From IMG/VR virus record IMGVR_UViG_3300045996_000340, positions 1 to 43,692 of that record: a stretch of DNA of 43,692 nucleotides; one strand, written 5' to 3'. Shown here one piece after another: positions 941 through 43,692 of this stretch. Numbering within the stretch: position 1 is the first letter of the stretch; each line of letters starts with the position of its first letter. The notes beneath the pieces are model-generated. The model saw only the letters and a program-made list of their open reading frames with translations. It was not told where the DNA came from and did not search any database. A program made the position numbers and the translations under genes. Source of the DNA: a virus.

Positions 941-956
941 GGTGGATAGGAGGGGG
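941..956 (-). promoter_or_regulatory. Copy of the conserved minus-strand motif (CCCCCTCCTATCCACC), 12 nt upstream of the DNAP start
   Basis: Member of the roughly 13-copy CTGACCTATCCACC family (see findings). Confidence 0.45.
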
Positions 957-5586: not shown

Positions 5587-5601
5587 GGTGGATACGTCAG
5601 G
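5587..5601 (-). promoter_or_regulatory. Motif copy CCTGACGTATCCACC, 17 nt upstream of the SSB start
   Basis: CTGACCTATCCACC family. It is followed by TGAGGAACAGATCCACCATG. Confidence 0.45.
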
Positions 5602-6405: not shown

Positions 6406-6428
6406 GGTGGAGTGAGGGGGTAATTCAC
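6406..6428 (-). promoter_or_regulatory. Candidate phage-RNAP promoter P1 (GTGAATTACCCCCTCACTCCACC)
   Basis: One of three near-identical 23-mers. An AT-rich block plus CCCTCACT matches the layout of the T3 (AATTAACCCTCACTAAAGGGAGA) and T7 promoters. It lies 38 nt after the RNAP stop, like T7 phi1.1. Confidence 0.6.
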
Positions 6429-6458: not shown

Positions 6459-6470
6459 GATTGGATCAGG
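6455..6470 (-). promoter_or_regulatory. Motif copy CCTGATCCAATCCACC overlapping the RNAP stop codon
   Basis: CTGACCTATCCACC family (degenerate copy). Confidence 0.3.
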
Positions 6471-8961
6471 CGAAGAAGAAGTCGGACTGCTTGATCAGCT
6501 CCAGGTCCAGGGTGCCCATCGCCGGGGGCTCCGGGAGGGGCGCGCCGAGGACAGCCTCGACGCTGGCCTTGAGGTCGGCCAGGACGTTGTTCTCCTGGTA
6601 GAGGTCGATGAACGCCTGGCGCAGGCACTGCCCGAGCATCTCGGCGTCCGCGGCAGGGCAGCCGTAGCTGTCGTGGACCATGGCGAACTCCTCGATCCCA
6701 TTGTCCGCCGCGTAGCAGACCGAGAGCTGGAGGGCGGCGGCATCGAGCGAGTGGACGAAGTTGGGCGGGAAGGCGTTGCCCTGCTCCCTCCCGTTGATGG
6801 TGGGCAGGTACTCTTGAAGGCGGGGCTTGATGATCCGGTCACCGAGGCGGGTGTCCACCTGCCGGGACTTGGTTTCGTAGTACACCTGATGCACAGGGAA
6901 CCCCACCGGGGTCACCCACTCGATCGGCAGCTGCGCCTTGGACGTGACGGCAGCCACCTTCTTGAGCCAGTCCATGGCCTTGCGGGCGGCCACGACCACC
7001 TCCCCGATCGCGGTCCAGACGAGACGCGTCAGGAAGAGGGTCGGCTCCAGCAGCTCACCCATCGGCCACGGCGGGGTGTAGCTCGGGTCGCGCAGCTTGC
7101 GTGCCTCCACCTCCTCCTCGACGTGCTCCTGGATGTACTGCCGGCAGGAATGGCGCGTGCCGCTGTAGGGCACCACCATGACCGGCCGCTTGGTGGTCTT
7201 GCGGGTCACCCCGAAGTCCAGCCACTGCTGCGCCAGCACCCGCTCGGCTTCCTCCTCGTCGTTGGTTCCCGCAGTGGATACGATACGGCGCAGCTTATGC
7301 AGCGTGACCGTGGCCACCTCCTGGTAGATGTCGGCCGGCTTGTTGGACGGCACCAGGTTCACCGCCTTGCCACCCCTCGGGTCGCGCAGCATGGCGGAGT
7401 AGTGCTGGAGGCCGTTGCAGCTTCCGTCCAGCGAGATGGGCAGCGTTGAGACGAAGCCCCAGCCGTGGGCCTGGAAGGCGGCCCACTCGAAGCAGAAGGC
7501 GAGGAACTGCCAGGGCTTGTCGGCCTCGGTCCACCACCGCTCCGAGATCGGGTCGGCGGCACAGGCGAGGATCTGCTGCTCGTGCTCCTGGACCCACGCG
7601 ATGCGGCCGTCGAGGCTCACCTTGTCGTAGCCGAAGACGCCGGCGCCGTGGATCATGAGCCAGCCAGCGGCGACGGTGTCATTGATCGGCTTGCCCTTGG
7701 CGAAGGTCAGCAGCCCCTTGGCCAGGTCGTTGCCTTGCGGGGTCAGGTACTGAGGCATCGGATACACCCGCCCGCGGAAGTCGAGCTGGTGCGGGAAGTA
7801 GATCGCCTGCTCGTCCTTGAACTTGTCGGCCAGCCAGAGGATCTTCCCCGCCTGGAGCCGCTTGGACCTGAGCTTGGCGTTGTAGCCATGGATGCGGGCG
7901 GCGTCCCGCTTCCAAAGCTTCTTCATCTCCTCGTCCCGGAGGTGCTCGTGATCCCCCTCCGGCTTCTGCCCGCAGACAGGGCATGGAGGGAGAGCCACGT
8001 CATCCTTAGCTGGGAGCTTGCCGACCGTGATGCCGGCATCCCAGTACCAGTGGGCCACCGCCAGCACGTCCTTCCGGACGAGCCAGCCGGTGCGGTCGAT
8101 GCGCTCGACGGCCTCACGCACGGTGGCCATCTCGTCCCAGGAGGCGGCCATCTTCTTGAGGGTGATGTTCAGACCGCTCGACGTCTTGAGCAGGCGCCGC
8201 TTGGCGCGGTTGGTGTGGTATCCGCCATCGGTCGGGCTGGTCCATGGCTTCGGCTCGACCAGCATGGGGAGGAGCATCGGCGAGAGCAGCTCGCACCGAG
8301 AGACGGTCGAGTTGATCCAGGTGAGGGCCTTCTTGGTCGGGATCAGCTGCACCCGGCACTCGCGCCGGAGCTGGATGGTCTCGGTCTCAGCGAAGCCTGT
8401 CGTCTCGATCATCATGTCGAGACAAGCCATGCCCAGATGCATCCGCTCCTGCTGAGACATGCTAGTGTAAGCGGTGCCGTACTTGTTGGCGGCGTAGGTC
8501 ATGACCTTCTCGCGGTAGCCCCGGTGAGAGGACCGGCGGACGCTCTCGGAGACCTTGCCGTAGAGCTTCGGCTGCTGCTGCTCGAAGGCCTGGTAGTGCA
8601 GCTCGTTGTCCAGCTGGGCGCCGATCGACATGGCCACCTTCGTGACCGGCGTCGTGCGGGTGATGCTGTCGAGGACCACCTTCATGATGATGAAGGCGGC
8701 CACCTGAGGGTCGATCAGGGACAGGTGCTTGACGGCGCTGTGCCTGCGGCCACGGCCGCCAGACATGGCCTTCTCGATGAACGCCTCAATGGCCTGGGCC
8801 AAGGGCTTGATCGCCCGGCTGACCATCTCGATACCGTAGGGGGTGGTGCTCTCCTCGTGGGTGTCTCGGGCTCGGGCGAGGCGGGCTCGGAACTGGTCGG
8901 TCCCGAGGCCCTGCATCTCCGCCTCAAGCTCGGCTTGGCGCTGCATCAGGGTGTCGTTCAT
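6466..8961 (-). CDS. Single-subunit DNA-dependent RNA polymerase (T7 gp1-like)
   Basis: 831 aa. HQLDFRGRVYPMPQ, DGSCNGLQHYSAMLRD, VMVVPYSGTRHSCRQY, PPNFVHSLDAAAL, MVHDSYG, and C-terminal DFFFA (T7 ends FAFA). Confidence 0.97.
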   Translation of the reverse strand: MNDTLMQRQAELEAEMQGLGTDQFRARLARARDTHEESTTPYGIEMVSRAIKPLAQAIEAFIEKAMSGGRGRRHSAVKHLSLIDPQVAAFIIMKVVLDSITRTTPVTKVAMSIGAQLDNELHYQAFEQQQPKLYGKVSESVRRSSHRGYREKVMTYAANKYGTAYTSMSQQERMHLGMACLDMMIETTGFAETETIQLRRECRVQLIPTKKALTWINSTVSRCELLSPMLLPMLVEPKPWTSPTDGGYHTNRAKRRLLKTSSGLNITLKKMAASWDEMATVREAVERIDRTGWLVRKDVLAVAHWYWDAGITVGKLPAKDDVALPPCPVCGQKPEGDHEHLRDEEMKKLWKRDAARIHGYNAKLRSKRLQAGKILWLADKFKDEQAIYFPHQLDFRGRVYPMPQYLTPQGNDLAKGLLTFAKGKPINDTVAAGWLMIHGAGVFGYDKVSLDGRIAWVQEHEQQILACAADPISERWWTEADKPWQFLAFCFEWAAFQAHGWGFVSTLPISLDGSCNGLQHYSAMLRDPRGGKAVNLVPSNKPADIYQEVATVTLHKLRRIVSTAGTNDEEEAERVLAQQWLDFGVTRKTTKRPVMVVPYSGTRHSCRQYIQEHVEEEVEARKLRDPSYTPPWPMGELLEPTLFLTRLVWTAIGEVVVAARKAMDWLKKVAAVTSKAQLPIEWVTPVGFPVHQVYYETKSRQVDTRLGDRIIKPRLQEYLPTINGREQGNAFPPNFVHSLDAAALQLSVCYAADNGIEEFAMVHDSYGCPAADAEMLGQCLRQAFIDLYQENNVLADLKASVEAVLGAPLPEPPAMGTLDLELIKQSDFFFA

Positions 8962-8974
8962 TGGCGCCTCGTGA

Positions 8975-9021
8975 TGGGTGGAAGTGATGGCTAGGTGGAT
9001 AGGTCAGGACACACGAATGGC
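8975..9021 (-). repeat. 47-nt leader repeat, copy A (upstream of the RNAP gene)
   Basis: About 83 percent identical by hand alignment to 9251..9297. Minus strand CCATTCGTGTGTCCTGACCTATCCACC...TTCCACCCA. Confidence 0.75.
8994..9008 (-). promoter_or_regulatory. Motif copy CCTGACCTATCCACC (consensus), 32 nt upstream of the RNAP start
   Basis: CTGACCTATCCACC family. Confidence 0.5.
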
Positions 9022-9241: not shown

Positions 9242-9250
9242 GCTGTCCCT

Positions 9251-9297
9251 TGGGTGGAAGAGGTGCCGGCGTGGATAGCTCAGGGCACACGAATGGC
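9251..9297 (-). repeat. 47-nt leader repeat, copy B (upstream of 9023..9241)
   Basis: Minus strand CCATTCGTGTGCCCTGAGCTATCCACG...TTCCACCCA. See copy A. Confidence 0.75.
9270..9284 (-). promoter_or_regulatory. Motif copy CCTGAGCTATCCACG
   Basis: CTGACCTATCCACC family, inside leader repeat B. Confidence 0.45.
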
Positions 9298-9303
9298 CCT
9301 GGA

Positions 9304-9987: not shown

Positions 9988-10003
9988 GGTGGATACAAGT
10001 CTG
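9988..10003 (-). promoter_or_regulatory. Motif copy CAGACTTGTATCCACC directly abutting ATG 9987
   Basis: CTGACCTATCCACC family. Confidence 0.4.
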
Positions 10004-10203
10004 TCGGAACGTGGCTCCCCGCCTGGCTTTGCGAGCCGTTCTAGGGCCGAACGCAACACGGGTGGCGGGGTGAGCGGGGAGGCTAAGCGTTTGATTTTCC
10101 GTTCGACACATGCCGGCCTGGATACCATTCCACGGGGGCATGGCTGGTGTATGGATTTGGGCGTGAACAGGGTGGGAACACAGCGCCTGGACAGAGGGGG
10201 AAC

Positions 10204-10222
10204 ACGCAACAAATACGCAACA
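10204..10222 (+). repeat. ACGCAACA x2 (10204-10211, 10215-10222), candidate recombinase or regulator arm-type sites
   Basis: Read directly. The same 8-mer recurs at 10497-10504 and, inverted, at 20286-20293 and 20298-20305. Confidence 0.5.
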
Positions 10223-10253
10223 TGGCCAATCCACCCTTGCAGTCTGTCGGCAG

Positions 10254-10268
10254 AGTGGATAGCAGGTG
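10254..10268 (-). promoter_or_regulatory. Motif copy CACCTGCTATCCACT; an opposite-orientation partial copy (caatccaccc) lies at 10227-10236
   Basis: CTGACCTATCCACC family (degenerate), in the 385-nt gap between the tRNA and the antirepressor gene. Confidence 0.3.
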
Positions 10269-10371
10269 CGCAAGCTCGTCCGGCCGGACTGAAGCCGGCT
10301 GAAAGCCTACGCTAAGGGATCAGTTGGAGGGGTGCGTAGCAGGGTGCGATAGATTTTGAGTCCGTCGATCG

Positions 10372-10458
10372 TGGTGCCGGGGACGGGAGTTGAACCCGTA
10401 AGCCCTTGCGGGCGCTGGATTTTGAGTCCAGTGCGTTTACCAGTTTCGCCACCCCGGC
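10372..10458 (-). tRNA. tRNA-Leu (anticodon CAA), type II with long variable arm and encoded CCA
   Basis: Minus strand GCCGGGGTGGCGAAACTGGTAAACGCACTGGACTCAAAATCCAGCGCCCGCAAGGGCTTACGGGTTCAACTCCCGTCCCCGGCACCA. 7-bp acceptor stem GCCGGGG/CCCCGGC, anticodon stem CTGGA/TCCAG with loop CTCAAAA, variable-arm hairpin GCCC-GCAA-GGGC, T-arm ACGGG-TTCAACT-CCCGT. Confidence 0.9.
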
Positions 10459-10459
10459 C

Positions 10460-10504
10460 CGCAACATTCGCGACCGAATGCAACATCGCCGCAACAACGC
10501 AACA
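10460..10504 (+). repeat. Cluster of four (C/T)GCAACA repeats immediately 5' of the tRNA gene
   Basis: gcaaca at 10461, 10480, 10491 and 10499, read directly. Confidence 0.5.
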
Positions 10505-10524
10505 TGCCACGTCGGTGCATCAGA

Positions 10525-11025
10525 TCAAGTCTGATCGCGGTCCGGTAGGCCCACGAGTTTGAACTTGCAACGCCGATCCTGGGGGCAGTCCCGGAGCTTT
10601 CGGCGCGCTTCGACGACCGCAGCTGCGATCCGGTCCGCCGCGGCGACCACGTCTTCGTGCTCCCAGACGGTGAAAAGCGTCCAGCCCTCAACGCGCAGTC
10701 GATAGGCCGTATCTTCGTCCCTTGCGCGGGTGTGGGCGAGCTTTTCACGCCACCATTCGCCGTTGGCTTTTGGTATGACGCCATGTTGCGGGCAGTGGTG
10801 CCAGAAGCACCCGCGGACTTCCACCGCTATGCGGACGGTCCTGAAGACGAGGTCGATGTGCCTCCGCAAGCCGGGAACGGGTCGTTGGAACAAGCGGTAG
10901 CGGAGACCGCGCCGGTGAAGCTCCCGGCGCAAGGCCACCTCCGGCTTCGTGTCCCGTCGCGATTGTCGTTGCATCCGGTTGCGGACATCCGGCGAACTGG
11001 CAAAGCTGACGCCCTTTCGTACCAT
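10525..11025 (-). CDS. vsr: Very short patch repair endonuclease (Vsr)
   Basis: SRRDTKPEVALRRELHRRGLRYR, IAVEVRGCFWHHCP, PKANGEWWREKL, RDEDT...GWTLFTVWEHE: canonical Vsr blocks. Confidence 0.9.
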   Translation of the reverse strand: MVRKGVSFASSPDVRNRMQRQSRRDTKPEVALRRELHRRGLRYRLFQRPVPGLRRHIDLVFRTVRIAVEVRGCFWHHCPQHGVIPKANGEWWREKLAHTRARDEDTAYRLRVEGWTLFTVWEHEDVVAAADRIAAAVVEARRKLRDCPQDRRCKFKLVGLPDRDQT

Positions 11026-11124
11026 TAGGTCGTTTCCTCCGCCGCGATATCGCCAAGGGGTAGACTCCAGGATAGCGCTTGTGCCTTATGGCAACCACCA
11101 CTGCGCGAGTTCGGAGGTCTGAAG

Positions 11125-11796
11125 TTGCCTTCACATGTATTGGCCAGAGAGCCTGACCCACGCGGCTTCGCGAACGATCAGGCGCTGGCCGCGCTTGGGC
11201 TTCGCCGTGAGCAGATCGCCAACAGCATCATGGGCACGTACCGCCTCTTCGACCGCATCGACTCGACGCTGGCGACTGACGGCGTAGCCCCGCTGTGCCA
11301 GATCATCGAGCTGGCCAACCTCAGCAGCATGATGGGCAACATCATGGGCGCAGAGTTGGCGAAACACAGCGACGGGCTTTATCGCCGTAACGGCCCCCAC
11401 AAGTACCCCGATCTCCTGCCCCTTGGCGAGTTGGCGGTAAGAGGCGGCATAGAGATCAAGTTTTCGTTGAACCGCAATTATCCGAAGGGGCACCTTGCCA
11501 AGGAAGGGTACTACATCACCTGTCGGTATATCCTGGTCGGCGAGAATGGAGAGAGAATAGGAGAGGTGGCCGATCGACCAAAGGCGAGCAAGGCCGTCAT
11601 ATGGGAAGTCAGGACGGGCCATCTCGGGATCGCTCACTTCAACCTCAGCAATACCGAAGGCGACTCCGGTAAGACGGCTGTGATCAATGCTGCCGGCATG
11701 GAGGAGCTGAAGACAGTGTACGTCGACTTGGCCATGGTGCCCGGCAGCCAACGGGGTGCGCGCTATAAGGCTTACCGTTACCTCGTGGGCCGCTAG
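11125..11796 (+). CDS. PD-(D/E)XK nuclease, candidate Type II restriction endonuclease partner of the adjacent methyltransferase
   Basis: 223 aa. HKYPDLLPLGELAVRGGIEIKFS gives PD...E-x-K spacing. TTG start with GGAGG 8 nt upstream. It converges tail-to-tail (5-nt gap) with the C5 MTase and is divergent from vsr. No family was recognised by eye. Confidence 0.5.
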   Translation: MPSHVLAREPDPRGFANDQALAALGLRREQIANSIMGTYRLFDRIDSTLATDGVAPLCQIIELANLSSMMGNIMGAELAKHSDGLYRRNGPHKYPDLLPLGELAVRGGIEIKFSLNRNYPKGHLAKEGYYITCRYILVGENGERIGEVADRPKASKAVIWEVRTGHLGIAHFNLSNTEGDSGKTAVINAAGMEELKTVYVDLAMVPGSQRGARYKAYRYLVGR

Positions 11797-11801
11797 GGGG
11801 T

Positions 11802-13253
11802 TCAGTCCGACTCCAGAATTGCCTCGGCAATCAGCCTCCCGAGAAGGGGCGGCACCGCGTTACCGATCTGCTTCACCACCTGTGACCGCATGCCACTGAA
11901 TTCGAACGTGTCGAAGAAACCTTGCAGCCTGGCTCCCTCGCGAGGCGTGAGGGCTCGGTCTTGGATGGGGTGGATGCACCGGTTGCTCGCTGGGTGGACA
12001 AAGTTGACCGTGATGGTGTTCGCCGGCTCGTCCCCATCAAGCCTGCTGTAGCAGGTGCTGAACCCGGACGTCACCAACCCCGGTGGCAAACAGTTGATGT
12101 TCTTCCCAGCATGTCGAATGATCTCAAGCATCGCTGGGGTATGCGAGGTCGCGTCATGAAGCGTCAGCCGCTCAGCTCCGGCTCGGATCACCTCTGCATA
12201 GCGCGACACCGGGGCGTCCTCGTTGTATTCCGTCGCGGCCTCTCCCGAACGCACCGGGGGTAGGTCGCCGATTGCCTCCATAACGGTGACGGCCGGACGC
12301 GTGTCCCCGAGGAAGCCAGGATCGGGCATCAAGAGCAGGGGAGAGTTCCCGACCATCGACCGCCGGTCGTGATGGTGCGTGGGCTTCGGCCATTCAAACG
12401 CCTTTCCTCGCCGCGAACCGACGATGATCAAGCGTTCACGGCGCTGGGGTAGGCCGTGGTACGCGGCGTTCAGCACTCGGGCTGACACCCGATAACCCAA
12501 CGCCTCGAACGCCCCGAGAAGGGCCTGGTACACCTTGCCATCCTTGTGAGAAAGGAGGCCTACGACATTCTCGAAAACCAGCCAGTCTGGCTCAAGCGCC
12601 GCCACAATTCGGCAGAACTCTTCACCGAGATTATTGCGCGGGTCATGCCATTCGACATTGCGGAACGGCCGTAGAGAGGAAAACCCTTGGCAGGGTGGCC
12701 CACCGATGACAGCAAAGGGGGGTGGGTTTTCTGAAGCCAATGTCTCCGTCGCTAACTTGCGGATGTCCATACCGTATGCGTTTGCGGCGGCATGATTGGT
12801 AGCAAAGGTCTCCAGCCGGTCACCAAGCAGATCCACGCCTGCGACAACTTCGAACTCCCAGGTAGCTTCAAAACCAGCGCTGAGACCACCAATGCCGCAG
12901 AACAGGTCGATAACGGGGCGAAGACCAAGGTCAGGTTCTCTCCGGCGGCGCCGAACCGTCTCGGCTTCGGGAATGGCCGTCACGTATCCTTCGCCGGAGA
13001 CCGCCACGCTCGGCTTGACGCCGTTTAGGTCTGCGCCAAGCGCGCGCTCCAGGCGGCGGGCGTCTTCCTCCGATAGGGGGTCAAGACCGCGTTCTAGGCG
13101 CGCCAAAGCGGAAACAGTCATGCCGGCATGCCGTGCCAGTTCGCGTTGGGCAAGTCCTTTCGCTAACCTGAGCCGACGGATATCGATGTAGGCGTGGGCG
13201 CTCATTGATTTGCGATGCCTTCCTTGAGTGTTGAAGACATTCCGGGATCGCAC
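11802..13253 (-). CDS. DNA (cytosine-5) methyltransferase with N-terminal XRE-type HTH domain
   Basis: HTH LAKGLAQRELARHAGMTVSALARLERG. MTase motifs: I DLFCGIGGLSAGF, IV GGPPCQGFS, VI FENVVGL, VIII QRRERLIIVG, X GNAVPPLL. An alternative start MSAHAY at 13205 is plausible. Confidence 0.93.
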   Translation of the reverse strand: MRSRNVFNTQGRHRKSMSAHAYIDIRRLRLAKGLAQRELARHAGMTVSALARLERGLDPLSEEDARRLERALGADLNGVKPSVAVSGEGYVTAIPEAETVRRRRREPDLGLRPVIDLFCGIGGLSAGFEATWEFEVVAGVDLLGDRLETFATNHAAANAYGMDIRKLATETLASENPPPFAVIGGPPCQGFSSLRPFRNVEWHDPRNNLGEEFCRIVAALEPDWLVFENVVGLLSHKDGKVYQALLGAFEALGYRVSARVLNAAYHGLPQRRERLIIVGSRRGKAFEWPKPTHHHDRRSMVGNSPLLLMPDPGFLGDTRPAVTVMEAIGDLPPVRSGEAATEYNEDAPVSRYAEVIRAGAERLTLHDATSHTPAMLEIIRHAGKNINCLPPGLVTSGFSTCYSRLDGDEPANTITVNFVHPASNRCIHPIQDRALTPREGARLQGFFDTFEFSGMRSQVVKQIGNAVPPLLGRLIAEAILESD

Positions 13254-14831: not shown

Positions 14832-15182
14832 CTAGCTTTCCCCTTGTGCGATCGCCATCAGGCGATCTTTGAGTTGCTTGCCCCTCGGTGTAAGCGTCAC
14901 GATCTTGCGGCGCCGCTCGTAGGGGTCCTCAGTTGCCTTCACCAAGTCCAGACCCGGCTTCCGCAGCCGGTGTATTTTGCTCAGCGCCGAGACGTTCCTC
15001 GACATCGTCGACTGAGCCACGCCGAGGGCATCCGCAATGTCCTTCATCGTGCAGCCCTCATGCACCACGATGTAGAGGAAGGTGTTGACGGTCTGCGAGG
15101 GCAGCTCCTGGTCGAGCTTCCTGAACTCCTCGATGGCCTTGAACATCCTGTAGATGGGGGCGGTCCCATTCGTCTTCGCCAT
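14832..15182 (-). CDS. MarR-family winged-helix transcriptional regulator (candidate lysogeny or island regulator)
   Basis: LPSQTVNTFLYIVVHEGCTMKDIADALGVAQSTMSRNVSALSK...DPYERRRKIVTLTPRGKQL is a typical MarR wHTH plus wing. Confidence 0.8.
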   Translation of the reverse strand: MAKTNGTAPIYRMFKAIEEFRKLDQELPSQTVNTFLYIVVHEGCTMKDIADALGVAQSTMSRNVSALSKIHRLRKPGLDLVKATEDPYERRRKIVTLTPRGKQLKDRLMAIAQGES

Positions 15183-15912: not shown

Positions 15913-16181
15913 GTGGGCTCTCCGATGGTGGTGGTCAGAACGGCGGAGGTGAGGACAGCTTCGCGCTCGGCCTCGTACCTGTCGTAGGAGCCAAGGCACA
16001 GGCGCTCGGCCGCTTCCCGGAGGACGATGGCGGCTGCTTTCGGGCTGGACCGGGACCGTCAGAGGCTTGTCTCATGGGGCGTAAAATGCAATGACTGGTG
16101 GGCTTCGGAAGCCGCAAGCGGGGGAAATCCCAGTTTGGACGGTATGCCAACAGCCGACATCTGGCCATTAGCTGGGAGCAC

Positions 16182-16793
16182 ATGCCAATGACTACTCGCC
16201 GGGTCTTAGACTTAACTGTTTTCTGCTGTCTCGCGGCCGTCACCTTTTATTGCCATGACGCTAAGGCTGAAGAAGACCAACTGACCGGTTGCCTGCGAAA
16301 TGGTCGGCTTACACAGCTCCAGCTTGGCGACGAACCTCTACGCTCGGAATGTCCCCGCAAAAGCGAGCAGGTGACGATTGGCGCATCGGCTTTTGAAACT
16401 CCGTTCTCCGTCGCCATGACAGTAAGTGATCCCGATATCGTGGTCGGGAAGAATGGCCCGCTTGAAGTGGTCGCGCGGTGTTTTCCTTCGCCCGCTTCCG
16501 GCCTGCCGCGCTCGCGGTTACTCATACGCAGCAGCGTCGACGACTGGGCGATAACGCAAGCGATCGACCCAACCCGCAACGGCTTGTTCGACCTACCGGC
16601 AGGTGAGCAGCCGATTACCGGGACCACAACCTCGGCTCCCGCGATCGGGCTCGCGGGGGGTGTCTCGGCTATCGCGCCCGTTGGATCGGTGCTCACGGTG
16701 GATAACGTACTGATCGCGATGCACATCCTCGCCGGCTTCGACTGCGTCATGACCGGCGTGGTTACGGAGATCAAGGTTCCCATCGAGCCGTGA
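16182..16793 (+). CDS. Exported protein (signal peptide), plus-strand moron in the early region
   Basis: MPMTTRRVLDLTVFCCLAAVTFYCHDAKA / EEDQ.... GGGAG lies 4 nt upstream. Visibly lower G+C and different codon usage than neighbours. Opposite strand to the phage backbone. Confidence 0.6.
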   Translation: MPMTTRRVLDLTVFCCLAAVTFYCHDAKAEEDQLTGCLRNGRLTQLQLGDEPLRSECPRKSEQVTIGASAFETPFSVAMTVSDPDIVVGKNGPLEVVARCFPSPASGLPRSRLLIRSSVDDWAITQAIDPTRNGLFDLPAGEQPITGTTTSAPAIGLAGGVSAIAPVGSVLTVDNVLIAMHILAGFDCVMTGVVTEIKVPIEP

Positions 16794-16913
16794 GGATCTG
16801 GTCACTCGCGGGGTGCGGTAGCGGTAGGGCTCGGACGGACCGCTCGGCTTGACCGGGCGCCAGATCATGGTGTTGCCTTCGCGGACCAGGACGTGAACCT
16901 CGAAGGCTTCCAT
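16593..16913 (-). CDS. Hypothetical early ORF whose 3' two-thirds run antisense through the moron (possibly truncated or fused by the insertion)
   Basis: ATG 3 nt after the stop of 16917..17111. The first ~40 aa look protein-like. The remainder (inside 16182..16793 antisense) is Arg/Asp/Gly-rich. Confidence 0.25.
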   Translation of the reverse strand: MEAFEVHVLVREGNTMIWRPVKPSGPSEPYRYRTPRVTRSSRLDGNLDLRNHAGHDAVEAGEDVHRDQYVIHREHRSNGRDSRDTPREPDRGSRGCGPGNRLLTCR

Positions 16914-16916
16914 GGG

Positions 16917-17370: not shown

Positions 17371-17541
17371 TCAGGTCTCCGGGAGGTAGCGGTGCAGGTT
17401 GGGGCCGACGTAGGCGTGTGGGTCGGCGAGCAGCGCCGCGGCGATGTAGGCGAGTAGGGCCGCGAGGCGGGCCGAGTAGCCGAAGTCGTAGGCCTGCCGC
17501 TCGACAGGCAGGCCGGTGGTGGGTGGGTTGTAGCCGGACAT
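17371..17541 (-). CDS. Hypothetical small early protein (56 aa)
   Basis: Internal ATG MSGYNPPTTG... overlapping the upstream stop (TGATG). Confidence 0.45.
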   Translation of the reverse strand: MSGYNPPTTGLPVERQAYDFGYSARLAALLAYIAAALLADPHAYVGPNLHRYLPET

Positions 17542-17822
17542 CAGTGAGCCCTCCGGCGGCGACCCGCGGCGGTGCGCCACGTGCGGGAGCCCTCGGGGCG
17601 GTACTGCGCGCGCTTCTCGGTGCCGCACATGCGGGCGACGATCTGCCCGACCGTGCCGGGGCCGGCGGCGAGCGCATCCCAGCGTGCCATGATCAGCTCG
17701 CCGGTGATCGCCTCGAATGACCGGTTGGTGGTCCCCAGCGGGTGGCCGGCAGCGCTCTCGCGGGCGATCCTGGTGGTCACCTCGTCGGTCACGAGCGCGC
17801 GGAAGGTCTCGGCGTATGCCAT
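17541..17822 (-). CDS. Hypothetical early protein (93 aa)
   Basis: ORF track. A motif copy lies 19 nt upstream. Confidence 0.55.
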   Translation of the reverse strand: MAYAETFRALVTDEVTTRIARESAAGHPLGTTNRSFEAITGELIMARWDALAAGPGTVGQIVARMCGTEKRAQYRPEGSRTWRTAAGRRRRAH

Positions 17823-17839: not shown

Positions 17840-17856
17840 AATGGATTGGTCAGTCG
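17840..17856 (-). promoter_or_regulatory. Motif copy CGACTGACCAATCCATT (degenerate) overlapping the stop of 17850..18611
   Basis: CTGACCTATCCACC family. Confidence 0.3.
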
Positions 17857-18629: not shown

Positions 18630-18646
18630 GGTGGATTGATCGGCTC
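18630..18646 (-). promoter_or_regulatory. Motif copy GAGCCGATCAATCCACC, 18 nt upstream of ATG 18611
   Basis: CTGACCTATCCACC family. Confidence 0.35.
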
Positions 18647-18937: not shown

Positions 18938-19134
18938 GGCATACTCCAATAGTTGGCGTTGAGGATACAGCAGGACAAAGCGATGGCGACGATGGCGAAC
19001 ATCGCGACCAGCGCAGTTGTCGGGCACGTGGCGAAGTGCCAGAAGGCGCAGACATTGCGCCAGCGGCGCGGCTGGATTGGCTCAGGGCAGAGCACGGTGG
19101 TTGTCCTGTAAGGTTGGCTCAATCTGGCCACCAA
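18934..19134 (-). CDS. Possible first early ORF with one TM segment (start uncertain)
   Basis: The ORF track gives a TTG start and no clear SD. The only support is the ATGA coupling to the next gene and the hydrophobic stretch ALVAMFAIVAIALSCCIL. Confidence 0.25.
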   Translation of the reverse strand: MVARLSQPYRTTTVLCPEPIQPRRWRNVCAFWHFATCPTTALVAMFAIVAIALSCCILNANYWSMP

Positions 19135-19693
19135 TGGCGAACTTGACGCGCTCGCGCTTCGATGCCCGCCGAACCGGTGTAGGCGGCATGGTGACCAGAT
19201 TGAGACAACCTTGCGGCAACCCGCGCCGCTGGCATTGTGGCGAGCTACTTGACGTAGCGGCCGATTGGCGAGCGTTGCGGGTTGCCGTAGGTGTCTGTTT
19301 GGCTAGGTGCCCGGATCATGCGAGCCACAAGGCCCATCCTTGCGGCAAATCCGGTGTCTCCGACGTCGCTACTTGGCCCATGGGATGGCGCCTTTGGCGA
19401 TGGCCTAGTGTTCCCCTAGCGGAACACTTTGGGTTAAGCTGGGCAAGCCTGCCCCATCCCTACGGGCTTCTAACCCGCCGCCCTAGTCAGCTGCTGCTGA
19501 CCACAGACGCTTGAGAACCAGGATGGGCGTTCTCTTGCACCGGCCCACGATCGCACCGTGAGCACTGGCATATCCAGCTTCGCGACCCCTTCCGGGCATG
19601 TCGGGCTGCCATCGGCAGCTCTGGGCTGGACCCGCCGGCCCGGTTGTCTTCCCGGTCCGGTCAACCGCGTCTCGTTAGATGTTGACTACGCGG

Positions 19694-19722
19694 AATGTAT
19701 GACCGCGGGCGACAGTTGTCAC
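19694..19722 (-). promoter_or_regulatory. Candidate host sigma70-type early promoter (GTGACA-N17-TACATT) with an upstream A-tract
   Basis: Minus strand CATCAAAAAACCTCGTGACAACTGTCGCCCGCGGTCATACATT. It is the only AT-rich patch in the region and faces the early genes. The host is unknown, so this is weak. Confidence 0.25.
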
Positions 19723-19983
19723 GAGGTTTTTTGATGGTGCGACACTTTTCTGTTTTTGGCCACGGTTCCTGCCCGGTTGAGGTTGACCGTTGTCGCACCC
19801 TTGGCCAGCCTTGACGCATTGACCCGCGCGCAGCCGCTACGTGTGCCTGCGTGGATGCGTGCGCGTGCGGTCTTGGCCTCGACGCGGGCGCGCGGGCGTG
19901 GGCGTGGCGTGGGCGTGCGGCGCGGCCGGCCGGCGTTCCCTTGTGGGCAAGCGCGCGCCGCGGGCTGGCTGTCAAGCCCTATC

Positions 19984-20009
19984 GTGACCCCTTGACGTGA
20001 CCCCTTGCG
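19984..20009. repeat. Tandem 13-mer x2 (gtgaccccttgac / gtgaccccttgcg)
   Basis: Read directly. Confidence 0.85.
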
Positions 20010-20080
20010 GCCGGGCTTGCCGGGCTCGCGTGCGTGGGCGAGCGCGAGGCGTGGGCGTGCGGTCTGTCCTCGGGCTTGCG

Positions 20081-20119
20081 TTGGGTGGCCACGTTGGGTG
20101 GCAACGTCGGGTGGCCAGC
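20081..20119. repeat. Tandem 13-mer x3 (ttgggtggccacg / ttgggtggcaacg / tcgggtggccagc)
   Basis: Read directly. Confidence 0.85.
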
Positions 20120-20285
20120 CCTCGGAACACAGATACAGGGGATCAAACGGTCGACTGGCCAACCTTGCGCGTGCGTGCGCGGCGCCCGAGGCGTGCGTGC
20201 GTGGCGCTGGCGCGTGCGCCCGGGCGGTGTCGGCAGATCTATGATCTGTCGCAACCCTAGGCTTTCCGCGGGTTACAGCCCGCCG

Positions 20286-20305
20286 TGTTGCGTGTCGTGT
20301 TGCGT
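20286..20305 (-). repeat. ACGCAACA x2 on the minus strand (tandem 12-nt period)
   Basis: gtgttgcgtgtc gtgttgcgtgtg on the plus strand. It is the same 8-mer as beside the tRNA. Confidence 0.6.
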
Positions 20306-20448
20306 GTGGTGCGCGCGGGTGGGTGGGCAGGCACGGTTTTCCTCGCGTGCGCGGGTGCCCGCCCCCACGGGGGGAAACGGAGACCGATGCCCTTGCGGAT
20401 GCCCACTCGGGTGAGCACACCAAAACATCCGGGGTTGCCCCTGGTCGA

Positions 20449-20582
20449 CCGAGCGAGCGAAGCGAGGAGGGAGACCAGGGGGAGGAGAACCAGGAGGGGG
20501 AAGGACTGAGGAGGGGGGATCAGTAGAGGGTGGGGAGCCAGAAGGCTCACACTACGTACCGAGGAGGAGGCTGGGAGGAAAC
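20449..20582. repeat. Strand-asymmetric purine (G/A) tract on the plus strand with GGAGG/GAGGAGG iterations
   Basis: gagcgagcgaagcgaggagggagaccagggggaggagaaccaggagggggaaggactgaggagggggg...gaggaggaggctgggaggaa, read directly. Confidence 0.8.
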
Positions 20583-20598
20583 CTAACGCTACTACGAG

Positions 20599-20626
20599 AG
20601 GTACCCCCTCGCAGGTACCCCCTCCT
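20599..20626. repeat. Tandem 14-mer x2 (aggtaccccctcgc / aggtaccccctcct) with an inverted partial copy at 20649-20657
   Basis: Read directly. Confidence 0.8.
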
Positions 20627-20725
20627 GTCTGTCCTCGGGTCTGACATCGAGGGGTACATCAGGGGGAGACCCTCCACTACACCACCTCAGAGGCTAGGAC
20701 CTATAGGGTGTGACCCTGGGAGAGG

Positions 20726-20748
20726 GGTTGAGTGAGGGGGTAAATCGC
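20726..20748 (-). promoter_or_regulatory. Candidate phage-RNAP promoter P2 (GCGATTTACCCCCTCACTCAACC)
   Basis: Its 17-nt core is identical to P3. It sits at the edge of the non-coding region, comparable to T7 phiOL/phiOR. Confidence 0.55.
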
Positions 20749-20772
20749 ACCCACGCCAGATCAAGCACTTAG

Positions 20773-20800
20773 CTCCCCCCGGTTTGGGGGCCGGAGGGAG
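20773..20800 (-). terminator. Stem-loop after the last late gene (10-bp stem CTCCCTCCGG/CCGGGGGGAG with one G:U, 8-nt loop)
   Basis: Read directly. It lies 17 nt after the stop at 20817 and 25 nt before P2. There is no clean U-tract. Confidence 0.4.
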
Positions 20801-20816
20801 CCAGCAGTGGGTGGTC

Positions 20817-23171: not shown

Positions 23172-23187
23172 GGTGGATAGGTCTGGG
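23172..23187 (-). promoter_or_regulatory. Motif copy CCCAGACCTATCCACC, 18 nt upstream of the TerL GTG
   Basis: CTGACCTATCCACC family. Confidence 0.45.
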
Positions 23188-33566: not shown

Positions 33567-33585
33567 GGCTCGCCTCTGTGAAATG

Positions 33586-33631
33586 CAAAAAAGCAGGCCC
33601 CTCCCTGGGGTTAGCCAGAGAGGGAACCTGC
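33586..33631 (-). terminator. Strong intrinsic terminator directly after the major capsid gene (T7 Tphi-like position)
   Basis: Minus strand GCAGG-TT-CCCTCTCTGG-CTAACC-CCAGGGAGGG-G-CCTGC followed by TTTTTT. Confidence 0.7.
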
Positions 33632-33661
33632 CGGGTTGGGGTAGTCAGGTGGTGAGCTGGA

Positions 33662-34606: not shown

Positions 34607-34791
34607 TGGAGTAGTCCTGTGAGACTGGGGTTGGACGGATGTCCGACCGGTCAGCCCCATCAGCCGCCACGCAGGGGTGTCCCGAAGGCCTCTCCCGCGG
34701 GAGAGACAAGCAGCGGGGCCAAGGTGTCTGCTACTGGGCGGTTGGTCGGTCCAGCATGCGCTGGGCAGCCCTCTTACGAGAGGCACTGCTC

Positions 34792-34819
34792 TTGACTCAC
34801 TCACGAGGGAATGTAAACC
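34792..34819 (+). promoter_or_regulatory. Candidate sigma70-type promoter of the plus-strand moron (TTGACT-N16-TAAACC)
   Basis: Read directly. GGAGGG SD at 34845-34850, 7 nt before ATG 34858. Confidence 0.3.
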
Positions 34820-34857
34820 TGGTAAGTTAGGGGGATCGGGAAACGGAGGGTCACCCG

Positions 34858-35469
34858 ATGAAGACAATGCTTCCTCTAGCCCTGGGGGCATTTCTACTGC
34901 TGTCCGCTGGCGAATCTGTACTTGCGGCTGATGTACGTTGCTCAGACGGAATAACGGCCTCCGATGCTCACACTCCCAACCTGACGGTTCGGGCGGATTC
35001 AATTCTCTTTTGCGTCAATGAAGACTCGGATCGAGCGATCCTCTTTTTTCGAGCATCTGCGATGGTGAACCGCAGCTTCCCGGATTACAATTCCGCTCCT
35101 TGGCTAGCATTGAGGGTGTTTGATGATCAGGGGCAAGAGATCTTCGCAGATCCAACCTTTTGGGTGGCGACCGTGGCGCCATGCGGAGGCTATCACCCCC
35201 ATGCAATTGCGGTTCCCCGGAAGTTTGACTTTGAGGAAGCCTACTCAATCGAAGTCCAGCTGACGGGAAATGTTGGTGGGCGGACCAATTGCGGCACTCG
35301 GCCATCGGGATTTTTTGAGGCGGCTTGGTATGACGTGCAAAACAAGGTCGACAAGTGGCGAAGATTAGAGTTCAGCGAAGCCGAAAAGATGGCGATCAAG
35401 GCATACTTTAGTGGCGGAGGCGCGGCGGCAGGGTCGGATGGTGCTGCCCTCGGTGGCGGCGGCTACTGA
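34858..35469 (+). CDS. Exported protein (signal peptide), plus-strand moron inside the structural module
   Basis: MKTMLPLALGAFLLLSAGESVLA / ADVRC.... 4 Cys and a Gly/Ala-rich tail. Strong SD. Visibly AT-richer than the flanks. Opposite strand. Confidence 0.65.
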   Translation: MKTMLPLALGAFLLLSAGESVLAADVRCSDGITASDAHTPNLTVRADSILFCVNEDSDRAILFFRASAMVNRSFPDYNSAPWLALRVFDDQGQEIFADPTFWVATVAPCGGYHPHAIAVPRKFDFEEAYSIEVQLTGNVGGRTNCGTRPSGFFEAAWYDVQNKVDKWRRLEFSEAEKMAIKAYFSGGGAAAGSDGAALGGGGY

Positions 35470-35565
35470 CCCAGGGATAAGGCCGGGTTCCCGCCAGGGA
35501 GGTCCCGGTGATCGCCCACACGTTATGTCGGCTTCGTGCCTGGCTGGGCGGCCCGTTGTCGGGTC

Positions 35566-36882: not shown

Positions 36883-36900
36883 GGGCGGCTCCAGAACGCA

Positions 36901-36937
36901 GAAAAGGCCCCCTCCCAGCGTGAGCCAGGAGGGAGCC
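36901..36937 (-). terminator. Stem-loop plus short U-run between the holin-like gene and the spanin-like genes
   Basis: Minus strand GGCTCCCTCCTGG-CTCACG-CTGGGAGGGGGCC then TTTTC. The stem includes G:U pairs. Confidence 0.4.
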
Positions 36938-36961
36938 TCTACGGAACAGGATGGGGTGGAA

Positions 36962-37978: not shown

Positions 37979-37987
37979 TTATCCACC

Positions 37988-38002
37988 CGTGGATTGTTCA
38001 GG
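37988..38002 (-). promoter_or_regulatory. Motif copy CCTGAACAATCCACG abutting the portal stop; forms the palindrome ATCCACCCGTGGAT (37981-37994) with an opposite-strand half copy
   Basis: CTGACCTATCCACC family. Confidence 0.4.
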
Positions 38003-39568: not shown

Positions 39569-39579
39569 GGGGGTTCACC

Positions 39580-39834
39580 TTACCGTGGGATTTGGAGACC
39601 ACCTGCGACGGCGCTGGTAGCAGCACCACCGGAGCGGCGGAGAGGGATGATCAGGCGGCTACGCCCCTGCCTCGGGTTATCACCCTGACCACCGATGACC
39701 GGGCTGAGCCGCGGGCCACCAGCCGGCACGAACGCAGGCGGAGGCGGTGGAGGAGGAGGAGGGGGCGGAGGCGGAGGAGGTGGGGCCACAGGCGCAGGGG
39801 CCGGCTTGGGGGTCTTGACCTTCGGGGCACACAT
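39580..39834 (-). CDS. Proline-rich small protein (84 aa) with a 16-residue poly-Pro run; T7 7.3-position virion protein candidate
   Basis: ORF track. MCAPKVKTPKPAPAPVA-P16-AFVPAGG... Confidence 0.5.
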   Translation of the reverse strand: MCAPKVKTPKPAPAPVAPPPPPPPPPPPPPPPPAFVPAGGPRLSPVIGGQGDNPRQGRSRLIIPLRRSGGAATSAVAGGLQIPR

Positions 39835-39839
39835 GGTGG

Positions 39840-40057: not shown

Positions 40058-40080
40058 GGTTGAGTGAGGGGGTATTTCGC
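40058..40080 (-). promoter_or_regulatory. Candidate phage-RNAP promoter P3 (GCGAAATACCCCCTCACTCAACC) ahead of the structural genes
   Basis: A 23-mer near-identical to P1 and P2, about 20 nt upstream of ATG 40037. Confidence 0.6.
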
Positions 40081-40702: not shown

Positions 40703-40718
40703 GGTGGATAGGTTCAGG
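40703..40718 (-). promoter_or_regulatory. Motif copy CCTGAACCTATCCACC, 9 nt upstream of ATG 40693
   Basis: CTGACCTATCCACC family. It is followed by GGAGCAACTATG. Confidence 0.45.
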
Positions 40719-42684: not shown

Positions 42685-43692
42685 TTGCGATGGCCTCCCT
42701 CGCCATGAGCTGTACTTCGTCGTGGACGTGGGCGGCCGGCCACCAATCCGTGGGGACAACCAAGCCCTGGGTGGATAGGTCACGGCGCAAGAGAACCGTG
42801 GCCGTCTTGAAGGCGATCGAGCCGGTGGATTGCAGGAGGGTGTTCAGGGCGCTGTGCTGCGAGCGCACCGGGACGGCACGGCCGTCGATGCCCTTCAGCC
42901 AGTCGCGGCCCTCCAGGGCCTTCGCCAGGTCACCCATGAGGGTGCCCTTCTGGCCGACCTTGCCGATGCCGAGGCCCTTCGCGAGGCGGTCGCGGACAGC
43001 CTTGCCGAGCTTCTGTGGGTTGGTGCTCGGCGGGGTGAGGCCCAGCCTGGCGTAGTACTCCAGCACGATCGTGCCGAGCTTCTTGTCGCCCGCCCCGTAG
43101 AGCAGGGCGTACATCTCGGTCTTGGAGCAGTCACGGTTGGGGCTCAGCTCTTGGAGCGCATCCATGTTGACCTGGTGGATGTCGCCTTCGAGCAGCTCCT
43201 TGATGAACTTCCCGTCGTCGTACCTTGCGAGGTAGTGGCCGAGGCAGCGCAGCTCCAAGCCGGACGCGTCGGCGCCGACCTGGAGGTAGCCCTCGGGGGC
43301 GTGGAACAGACTGCGGCATTCCCAGCCGAAGCCGCCCTCGATCCCCATGAGGATGACCTTCTTGCCGTCGACCTTCGTGACCTGGACCTTCGGCACCTGG
43401 GTCACGTTCGGCCTGCGGTGGGTGCAGCGATGGGTCGGCGTCCCGATCGGGATCACCTCGCCGTGGATGCGGCCGTTGGCCTTGACCGCCTTGAGCCAGC
43501 CTTCCTTGCCGTCGCCGAGCTGGCCCAGCCGCTTCGCCACCATGAGGTACTCCGCGAGCTGCGGCGCCTCCGGGTAGGGGAGCTGGCTGATCACCACGTC
43601 GTCGACCTTGGGGTGGCCGTCCTTGGTGAACTCCTGCGGCACCCAGCCCCTGAGCTTCTTCAGGCGGTCGGCGATGTGGTGCCGGCTGCTCG
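42569..43692 (-). CDS. DNA polymerase, T7 gp5-like, C-terminal polymerase part (continuation of 1..928; 43600-43692 duplicates 1-93)
   Basis: RRPNVTQVPK, DASGLELRCLGHYL, ALLYGAGDKKLG, HVHDEVQL, and C-terminal FRCPLDGEYKVGKNWAETH (T7 ends FRCLLDTEGKMGPNWAICH). Confidence 0.95.
   Translation of the reverse strand, partial: SSRHHIADRLKKLRGWVPQEFTKDGHPKVDDVVISQLPYPEAPQLAEYLMVAKRLGQLGDGKEGWLKAVKANGRIHGEVIPIGTPTHRCTHRRPNVTQVPKVQVTKVDGKKVILMGIEGGFGWECRSLFHAPEGYLQVGADASGLELRCLGHYLARYDDGKFIKELLEGDIHQVNMDALQELSPNRDCSKTEMYALLYGAGDKKLGTIVLEYYARLGLTPPSTNPQKLGKAVRDRLAKGLGIGKVGQKGTLMGDLAKALEGRDWLKGIDGRAVPVRSQHSALNTLLQSTGSIAFKTATVLLRRDLSTQGLVVPTDWWPAAHVHDEVQLMAREAIANELGMSAVQSIRRAGERLGFRCPLDGEYKVGKNWAETH
42770..42785 (-). 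promoter_or_regulatory. Motif copy CCGTGACCTATCCACC inside the DNAP coding region (codons RRDLSTQ), upstream of 42361..42684
   Basis: CTGACCTATCCACC family. It is the only copy clearly inside a long gene. Confidence 0.35.
43600..43692. repeat. Contig-end duplication (identical to 1..93)
   Basis: See feature 1..93. Confidence 0.9.

Follow-up and report, generated by a model that had tools for sequence, protein, structure and literature searches.

A short motif with the core CTATCCAC occurs in about 14 copies on the coding (minus) strand of the 43,692-nt stretch of phage DNA analyzed here (hereafter, the window), most of them shortly 5′ of genes. We conclude that this regulatory word is real, oriented, mostly intergenic and conserved, and that it evolves independently of the phage promoter. 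Its most likely role is as the putative operator set of a phage-encoded MarR-like winged-helix regulator, centred on control of the phage RNA polymerase (RNAP) gene, and we consider this reading about equally likely to be right or wrong.

The phage genome

The window has a G+C content of 65.7% and all of its core genes are on the minus strand. The DNA polymerase (DNAP) gene spans both window ends; the contig of this T7-like podophage is therefore complete and circularly permuted. It represents the complete genome of a temperate-type T7-like phage, and the gene order, based on Pfam annotation, is typical of T7-like phages:

Left end: about 1.9 kb of non-coding sequence
Early genes, including a GP88-family gene
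14832-15182, minus strand: gene for the proposed motif reader, a MarR-like winged-helix regulator of 116 aa
13440-14465: tyrosine integrase gene, adjoining the MarR-like gene
Inserted restriction-modification block, listed between the integrase gene and tRNA-Leu
tRNA-Leu, then a Bro-N protein gene, then the RNAP gene (6466-8961)
Genes for SSB, endonuclease, primase/helicase, DNAP and exonuclease
Genes for portal, scaffold, capsid, tail and terminase proteins

No cultured close relative was found in the phage collection by blastn and tblastn, with RNAP identities of 40% at most. A host search with the RNAP protein across genome contigs gave no match, and one with the exact 3′ half of tRNA-Leu matched only two unrelated MAGs. 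The tRNA was the sole Rfam match in the window.

Abundance, strand and position of the motif

The original prediction had listed 13 minus-strand copies by coordinate and sequence. All 13 are present, and the list missed a 14th, at 7273-7287 inside the RNAP gene. It had also counted (C/G)TATCCAC nine times on one strand, whereas the minus strand holds 10. The pattern GTGGATWG occurs 12 times in the window (1.87 expected), with 11 of the 12 on one strand, and none of 100 shuffles reached 12. Allowing at most one mismatch, GGTGGATAG was found 16 times against 7.0 expected, split 14 to 2 between the strands. A weight matrix of 19 columns, applied at a threshold of at least 11 bits, matched 14 sense sites and one antisense site. 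The strand specificity and transcribed orientation that had been claimed hold in these counts of both strands. Twelve of the 14 weight-matrix matches are non-coding, compared with a non-coding share of 25.5% for the genome under conservative gene calls (binomial P = 4e-6). Moreover, (C)TATCCACC is the top k-mer in the short intergenic gaps of the window and two related genomes.

The individual copies are as follows:

941-955, minus strand: CCCCTCCTATCCACC, 19 nt 5′ of the DNAP ATG; kept in relatives A_964, B_070 and L004
932-949: 18-bp form of the DNAP-upstream copy, CTATCCAC-ct-GAGGATAC, a near-perfect palindrome whose right half matches the ideal at 6/8 positions
5587-5601, minus strand: CCTGACGTATCCACC, 24 nt 5′ of the SSB start codon; also kept in the more distant relative L102
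6455-6469, minus strand: CTGATCCAATCCACC, at the RNAP stop codon, with its TGA being the real stop
7273-7287, minus strand: CGT ATC GTA TCC ACT, within the RNAP coding sequence, using the rare Val codon GTA; kept in 4/4 relatives
8994-9008, minus strand: CCTGACCTATCCACC, the top-scoring copy, 39 nt 5′ of the RNAP start codon
9270-9284, minus strand: CCTGAGCTATCCACG, 35 nt 5′ of a 72-aa gene directly upstream of the RNAP gene
9988-10002, minus strand: AGACTTGTATCCACC, a weak copy that abuts the ATG of the Bro-N protein gene
10227-10268, both strands: inverted pair 20 bp apart, with CTATCCAC on the minus strand at 10255-10262 and CAATCCAC on the plus strand at 10227-10234, located between tRNA-Leu/attP and the Bro-N gene
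17840-17854, minus strand: ACTGACCAATCCATT, 24 nt 5′ of the early gene 17541-17822, with TGA being the stop of the upstream gene
18630-18644, minus strand: GCCGATCAATCCACC, 25 nt 5′ of the GP88-family early gene
23172-23186, minus strand: CCAGACCTATCCACC, 25 nt 5′ of the terminase large subunit start; kept in A_964, B_070 and L085
37979-38002, minus strand: CCTGAACAATCCACG followed by an inverted half, immediately 5′ of the scaffold gene ATG; positions 37979-37996 form the 18-bp palindrome CAATCCAC-gg-GTGGATAA, matching at 7/8 positions
40703-40717, minus strand: CTGAACCTATCCACC, 16 nt 5′ of a dNMP kinase-like gene, with TGA being the stop of the upstream gene
42770-42784, minus strand: CTA TCC ACC (Leu-Ser-Thr), in the 3′ end of the DNAP gene, using the rare Leu codon CTA

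The palindrome near the scaffold gene and the inverted pair between tRNA-Leu and the Bro-N gene, both noted originally, are real. At the DNAP-upstream copy the right half, GAGGATAC, also serves as the Shine-Dalgarno sequence. The top-scoring copy at 8994 belongs to a unit of about 50 nt, a duplicate of which is found at 9242-9303. Downstream (3′) of the 6455 copy there is a hairpin and then a T3-like promoter (6411-6424).

Nearly all motif copies were originally placed 0-35 nt before start codons. For 10 copies the A of ATCCAC lies 7-39 nt from the next start codon. Both coding copies deviate from this, as do the 6455 copy (75 nt, with the hairpin and the phage promoter in between) and the 10254 copy (273 nt). 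The gaps between genes are 27-90 nt long. The TGA within the motif is the true stop codon of the upstream gene at only about three sites (6455, 17840 and 40703). Half of the copies (7/14) are between 10268 and 5587, and the surroundings of the RNAP gene are the densest region, with four copies upstream of the gene, one inside it and a further one at the stop.

In the window, position 1 of the motif is C, position 5 of the 8-mer is C in all 12 minus-strand copies, and position 9 is C or T. Across 41 sites in four genomes, further conserved positions occur downstream (+10 G, +12 A, +13 W, +17 W and +18 T). The upstream positions are G/C-rich (GYGYSCCTGA), in agreement with the original remark that an AT-rich block is lacking. 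Both coding copies are written with codons that are rare in this phage, CTA (1.1% of Leu codons) and GTA (2.3% of Val codons), and these rare codons are kept in all relatives, indicating that selection acts on the nucleotide word.

Distribution among related phages

Comparison with related genomes revealed orthologous copies in the IMG/VR relatives, and the core also occurs in LUZ100 and P-SSP7. In the more distant relative L102 we found about six copies, including sites upstream of the MarR gene and of the RNAP gene, at the RNAP stop and before SSB. LUZ100, whose RNAP is 40% identical to that of the window phage, has 10 sense and no antisense copies of YWATCCAC, against 2.35 expected. The position at the RNAP stop is also occupied in LUZ100 (6689) and L102 (14875). 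In addition, LUZ100 position 13195 corresponds to the same DNAP protein position as the window copy at 42770 and carries CTATCCAC-cc-GTGGATAC. Cyanophage P-SSP7 has eight sense copies of the word YTATCCAC, all eight in annotated intergenic gaps. The most widely conserved sites are those that flank the RNAP gene, on its upstream side and at the stop codon. The motif is older than the group to which the window phage belongs.

The motif is absent from Syn5 and from the first 8 kb of gh-1, which infects Pseudomonas and has no MarR. It is also absent or weak in four phages that do encode a MarR protein (HTVC019P, Lo5R7ANS, Pasto and MedDCM-S42-C7), and whole-genome k-mer ranking in the motif-less MarR-bearing phages revealed no substitute motif. 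In P-SSP2, four orthologous intergenic sites read ATACAC. Strand bias is seen there for YWATACAC (10:2) and for YWATMCAC (11:2), but the YWATMCAC total equals the chance expectation, and the P-SSP2 evidence is confined to the four orthologous sites. The absence of the motif from gh-1, Syn5 and other phages, its change in P-SSP2 and its fixed C favor a phage-encoded reader over a universal host factor. We looked for a protein common to the motif-bearing phages alone and found none. A literature search for the word CTATCCAC returned primer sequences only.

The motif is distinct from the phage RNAP promoters

T7-type promoters have about 19-23 conserved bp, an AT-rich block from -17 to -13 and a defined +1, and their bases from -12 to -7 co-vary with the specificity loop of the RNAP. 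The IMG/VR relatives encode RNAPs that are 85-87% identical to the window RNAP, and every one of these genomes contains T3-like sites in the same three places: its left end, behind the RNAP gene, and ahead of the gene that precedes the portal gene. These sites are identical within a genome and different between genomes (TACCCCCTCACTC, TACCTTGCCACTC, TACCTTCCCACTT and TACCCCCTGCCTT). The specificity-loop residues, aligned to T7 RNAP 746-758, differ in the same pattern, and the loops that differ among the four genomes read RQVD/RIIK, RRVF/NILM and RRVE/SIMR. The core CTATCCAC is unchanged across the four genomes at orthologous positions, and the MarR recognition helix is constant as well. Because the motif stays constant while the specificity loop changes, the loop does not read the motif. 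We identify the three T3-like sites as the promoters of the phage RNAP. They are of the same type as the experimentally mapped LUZ100 phage promoters, AATTACCACACAG (PMC10134795). The distinction that the original prediction drew between the motif and the T3-like promoters is borne out by this comparison.

It had also offered a second promoter class for the single-subunit phage RNAP as one option, which we now regard as very improbable. As with T7 and T3 RNAP promoters, the motif is multi-copy and strand-specific in an Autographiviridae genome, and about 14 copies before gene blocks resemble a T7 promoter set. The motif and the T3-like promoter at 6411 (TCACTCCACC) share a 3′ TCCACC, and the DNAP-upstream copy, CCCCCTCCTATCCACC, appears to be a hybrid of the two. 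However, the motif is fixed while the specificity loop and the T3-like promoters change together, and it lacks the -17 to -13 block. P-SSP7 and P-SSP2 share the promoter word CACACTCAT, yet their motifs differ. Finally, the LUZ100 copies of the motif are not phage-specific transcription starts, unlike what would be expected of T7/T3-type promoters.

Dyad structure and the host promoters of LUZ100

MarR-family operators are palindromes or pseudopalindromes of about 16-20 bp, and sigma-70 promoters combine a -35 and a -10 hexamer separated by 16-19 bp. The LUZ100 element has the form of an imperfect inverted repeat of 18 bp, CTATCCAC-NN-GyGsATAG. We scored the dyad by comparing the eight bases after the 2-nt spacer with the ideal right half, GTGGATAG. 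The LUZ100 right halves match at a mean of 4.71 of eight positions against a background of 1.98 (sd of the mean 0.32). The right halves of the window sites are weak, with a mean of 2.6-3.1/8 over a background of 1.9 and at least 6/8 matches at only two of 16 sites. In the window group it survives chiefly as +10 G, +12 A and +13 T. Near-perfect palindromes are found at LUZ100 13195, 34511 and 35000, and at 37979-37996 and 932-949 of the window.

P1 and P2 of LUZ100 are experimentally mapped sigma-70 host promoters (PMC10134795). In both, the element fills -27 to -10, between TTGACA and TAAGAT (376-393 in P1), which is a classical repressor-operator position. The LUZ100 copies at 3939, 3995, 6689, 6965, 11569, 22150 and 34511 are not annotated primary transcription starts, taking the LUZ100 annotation (ONT-cappable-seq) as a proxy for start sites.

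A sigma-70 consensus scan detected no promoter at the window sites, consistent with the original statement that the motif does not fit -35/-10 spacing. The window hexamer at +13 to +18 (e.g., TCACTT, CCTCTT, ACAGAT) lacks the essential A at its second position.

The MarR-like protein as candidate reader

The MarR-like protein encoded at 14832-15182 matches Pfam MarR_2 (E-value 5.8e-6; 26.8 bits, just below the curated cut-off of 27), phrog_9665 (E-value 8.9e-37) and a MarR family structure in the PDB (6pcp, E-value 7e-4). It shares 51% identity with LUZ100 gp10 and is the sole transcription-factor-like protein common to the window phage, LUZ100 and P-SSP7. The predicted recognition helices are:

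Window group (four genomes): SRNVSALSKIHRL, with I replaced by M in A_964
LUZ100: SRNVSALSRVHRL
P-SSP7: SRNTDWLSEFHRL

The SRNVSALSK/R-I/V-HRL helix is nearly identical between the window phage and LUZ100, and motif-less phages have different residues in the HRL region. Given that the motif is absent or weak in four MarR-bearing phages, this HRL correlation is only suggestive.

A homolog of this protein with 44% identity, P-SSP7 pMarR (PSSP7_011), is a dimer that binds multiple DNA sites with no defined consensus (Lambrecht et al., 2022, PMC9692554). It contacts the RNAP alpha subunit, the RNAP core comes down with it in pull-downs, and reporter expression increases in its presence (PMC9692554). 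The R in the conserved SRN that opens the recognition helix is the essential Arg of this protein, and the P-SSP7 genome carries YTATCCAC in eight intergenic gaps. In contrast to the repression proposed here for the window phage, the published account is one of activation through the alpha subunit. The published binding study used the host rne promoter region, and the phage EMSA fragments, according to the primer list, were P-SSP7_001 (978-1114) and P-SSP7_hli (PMC9692554). There is no motif copy inside the P-SSP7_001 fragment.

For temperate T7-like phages, a MarR-based control of lysis and lysogeny has been put forward (Boeckman et al., 2022, as cited in PMC10134795). The arrangement in the window resembles both that proposal and MarR-family operators (e.g., marO, SlyA and OhrR sites) in that the MarR-like gene adjoins the integrase gene. 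The motif clusters around the phage RNAP gene, the predicted location of MarR sites. Like a MarR operator, the 18-bp pseudo-palindrome of LUZ100 reaches into host promoters, overlapping both their spacer and their -10 element. The differences from MarR operators are that about 14 copies occur genome-wide, not one or two at one promoter, that they have a single orientation and, in the window, one well-conserved half-site, and that some are in coding sequence.

A genomic island of Ectopseudomonas (formerly Pseudomonas) encodes a MarR protein with 58% identity and the same SRNVSALS..HRL helix, and no ATCCAC was found near its gene. This counts partly against the link between MarR and the motif. 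Upstream of two neighboring genes in this island we noted a 25-nt repeat containing CGCATAGTT.

Of the two regulators that the original prediction had suggested, a Bro-like protein is unlikely to be the reader, given that P-SSP7 has the motif but no Bro-like homolog. The MarR-like protein is best supported, by the LUZ100 dyad, the location of the element in the P1 and P2 spacers, the clustering around the RNAP gene and the shared recognition helix.

Proposed mechanism and alternative explanations

Taken as a DNA-level protein site, each motif copy would be a strong upstream half and a degenerate downstream half of CTATCCAC-NN-GTGGATAG, bound by a phage-encoded dimeric regulator, most likely the MarR-like protein. 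The operators would be dispersed, densest around the RNAP gene, with the rest placed in the short gaps that precede most units of transcription or translation. Binding may repress entry and read-through by host RNAP, above all into the phage RNAP gene, and could serve prophage silencing or early shut-off. In LUZ100 the putative operator set would also control the early host promoters. The constant orientation might reflect that the downstream half shares space with the ribosome-binding site in the window, or with the -10 hexamer in LUZ100, within gaps of 27-90 nt that leave little room. Several observations count against a MarR reader. The window sites are in effect lone half-sites, an unusual arrangement for MarR dimers, and a 14:1 orientation is unexpected for a symmetric DNA-binding dimer. 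The four MarR-bearing phages in which the motif is absent or weak also speak against it, as does P-SSP2, which has a recognition helix close to that of P-SSP7 and yet has ATACAC sites. Moreover, the window sites overlap no recognizable promoter.

An unlikely alternative is that the transcribed word, CUAUCCACC, is an RNA-level gene-start signal located just 5′ of the Shine-Dalgarno sequence and recognized in polycistronic mRNA. A sequence-specific endonuclease, a binding protein or the ribosome could be the recognizer, and the effect would be processing, stabilization or enhanced translation of the downstream cistron. Strict orientation (14 sense, 1 antisense) and the location 7-39 nt before the starts of early, middle and late genes fit such a signal. 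The motif is predicted to be unpaired, in regions no more structured than shuffled sequence, and processed ends would be invisible among the LUZ100 ONT-cappable-seq primary starts. However, closeness to start codons is almost forced by the very short intergenic gaps. The right half in LUZ100 is a sequence-conserved dyad and not merely complementary, P1 and P2, the first host promoters, have copies in their spacers, which are not transcribed, and two inverted copies are on the other strand (10227-10234, and the right half at 37979-37986). There was also no Rfam match, and a candidate sequence-specific RNase common to the three phage groups was not found. A translation-linked RNA element, one of the options raised originally, is a possible reading for which no positive evidence was found. 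Another of those options, an RNase III-like processing site, is disfavored by the lack of predicted double-stranded structure. T7 RNase III sites are long irregular hairpins with little sequence conservation. Like the motif, the T7 sites (R0.3 to R18.5) are spread before early, middle and late genes, whereas the motif is a conserved sequence for which no structure is predicted. Folding of ten window sites left the motif mostly unpaired (z-scores -1.75 to +1.26), and the only strong hairpin was the one downstream of the 6455 copy; the original claim that the motif is not part of a hairpin stands, with no shared RNA hairpin predicted.

Two further explanations involve host proteins. The motif and the hexamer 7 nt downstream of it could form the core of host-RNAP promoters, with or without the phage MarR-type protein, but we consider this a long way from probable. 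In its favor, the mapped sigma-70 promoters P1 and P2 of LUZ100 carry the motif in the spacer and TAAGAT at +13 to +18, other LUZ100 copies have TAGGTT or TAGGTA at the same distance, and the window group conserves +12 A, +17 W and +18 T. The RNAP core pull-down and raised reporter expression reported for P-SSP7 pMarR (PMC9692554) would also fit. Set against this, the LUZ100 copies other than those in P1 and P2 have no -35 element and are not annotated starts, the window hexamer has no A at its second position, and the promoter scan was negative at the window sites. A start about 27 nt downstream would also fall within several ORFs, for which the distances are 16-25 nt. We give very little credence to the idea that the copies are host DnaA boxes (TTATNCACA) scattered through the phage genome. 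The DnaA box is the 9-mer TTATNCACA with a free fifth position, and CTATCCACC fits a relaxed form of the pattern. P-SSP7 has a perfect TTATCCACA at 650, and DnaA, being universal, could account for the motif across unrelated hosts. Yet the free position is always C in the window (12/12), the first base is C rather than T in the window and LUZ100, and DnaA boxes are not arranged as 18-bp dyads with a spacer of 2 bp. The hosts of gh-1, Syn5, Pasto and Lo5R7ANS, which lack the motif, and of P-SSP2, in which it has changed, also have DnaA.

Some other candidates were set aside. A Caulobacter-type promoter (TTGACGS-N10-14-GCTANAWC), as well as sigma-54 and MerR-type interpretations, were poor fits by eye. 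The motif is similar to the 3′ end of the 16S rRNA and not its complement, and pairing with the local Shine-Dalgarno sequences would be limited to 3-5 bp.

Implications for temperate T7-like phages

Temperate T7-like phages are a recent and puzzling discovery, and the question is how a genome with a self-amplifying single-subunit RNAP is silenced. A MarR-type protein is the only candidate regulator for this silencing. Neither the LUZ100 transcriptome paper (PMC10134795) nor the P-SSP7 pMarR paper (PMC9692554) defined a MarR recognition sequence. A broader proposal, which we put forward tentatively and consider somewhat less probable than its opposite, is that CTATCCAC-NN-GTGGATAG may be the sequence that MarR-type regulators of temperate T7-like phages recognize (those of the window phage, LUZ100 gp10 and P-SSP7 pMarR), forming a co-oriented, genome-wide operator network. 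The analysis yields a concrete 8/18-bp word that occurs in three distant lineages and whose conserved positions include mapped early promoters and the surroundings of the RNAP gene. Regulator operators are of a known kind, and the dispersed, co-oriented and clade-wide arrangement in T7-like phages is undescribed in the LUZ100 and pMarR papers.

The LUZ100 RNAP/promoter pair is under development as an orthogonal expression part, and operator-like sites overlooked in P1 and P2 would affect LUZ100-based expression designs. If instead the RNA-level alternative were true, the motif would mark gene starts in phage mRNAs as a new sequence-specific signal. If the regulator proposal is true, one small protein would gate every transcription unit, bracketing and silencing the phage RNAP gene. 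The same protein would shut off the host-type early promoters, and it would thus be the molecular switch that permits an Autographiviridae prophage.

Inserted genes and the presumed attachment region

A lower-GC insert (window 10525-13253), located between the integrase gene and tRNA-Leu, encodes the following:

10525-11025, minus strand: Vsr mismatch endonuclease
11131-11751, plus strand: ORF
11802-13253, minus strand: C5 cytosine methyltransferase carrying an HTH at its N terminus

The insert looks like a restriction-modification cassette, and an R-M pair occupies the same place in the MarR-bearing phage Lo5R7ANS. Two low-GC stretches (34607-35565 and 15913-16916) contain no minus-strand gene by codon usage. 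Their ORFs look like opposite-strand morons, and one of the two stretches sits immediately upstream of the major capsid gene. Examples are:

34858-35469, plus strand: ORF of 203 aa, in 34607-35565
16098-16793, plus strand: ORF of 231 aa, in 15913-16916

The tRNA-Leu gene is the presumed attP and is flanked by short repeats:

10372-10458: tRNA-Leu gene
~10040-10510, minus strand: about seven (A)TGTTGCG direct repeats, on both sides of tRNA-Leu

The repeats resemble integrase arm-type sites. A related copy is present in A_964, an IMG/VR relative.

Genome left end, hairpins and a proline-rich ORF

The non-coding left-end region (18938-20816, ~1.9 kb) has abundant CACGC/GCGTG-type short repeats and C-tracts; a single sigma-70-like match lies at 19722-19694. 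The genome ends, the terminal repeat and the host early promoters are probably located here. The region also contains a degenerate copy of the ATCCAC-core motif, CTGAGCCAATCCAGC (~19071-19085), which is kept in relatives.

Three further minus-strand features are:

33567-33661, minus strand: G+C-rich hairpin followed by a T-run, after the major capsid gene
36883-36961, minus strand: G+C-rich hairpin followed by a T-run, located after the 64-aa gene that follows the scaffold gene
39569-39839, minus strand: proline-run ORF with the start CCACC-ATG

By analogy with the T-phi terminator after gene 10 of T7, both hairpins are terminator-like. The ORF was absent from the gene-caller output; its product has ~17 prolines in a run (CCTCCTCCGCCTCCGCCCCCT...). 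In phage Syn5, an annotated "proline-rich protein" precedes the portal gene at the matching position.

A MarR-bearing island

A non-T7 genomic island of Ectopseudomonas hydrolytica (NCBI GCA_049534695.1, L104 8500-11700) encodes a 58%-identical MarR-like protein with the helix SRNVSALS..HRL unchanged. Next to the gene for this protein are genes for Bro-N and AntA proteins, together with a type I R-M system. The 25-nt repeat AGAGGCGrrCTATGsGTGTkCG occurs ~30 nt upstream of two neighboring minus-strand genes and, in gene orientation, includes CGCATAGTT, which resembles the right half of the inverted-repeat element of Pseudomonas phage LUZ100.

Phage RNAP promoters

In cyanophage P-SSP7, TTACACACTCATCA occurs five times on the sense strand (2504, 3526, 6028, 9424 and 12515), ahead of the RNAP gene and DNA-metabolism genes. 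These copies are probably the phage-RNAP promoters of P-SSP7. The word CACACTCAT is common to P-SSP7 and P-SSP2, with six copies in the latter.

The T3-like phage-RNAP promoters of the window are:

6411-6424, minus strand
20731-20744, minus strand
40063-40076, minus strand

Only three occur per genome, at conserved places, in the window and its relatives A_964, B_070 and L004. Each genome uses one form of the sequence, and the forms differ among relatives (CCCCTCAC, CTTGCCAC, CTTCCCAC and CCCCTGCC). Although the RNAPs are ~85% identical overall, their specificity-loop residues vary in step with the promoters. The RNAP/promoter pairs of the window phage and its relatives form a naturally occurring orthogonal series.
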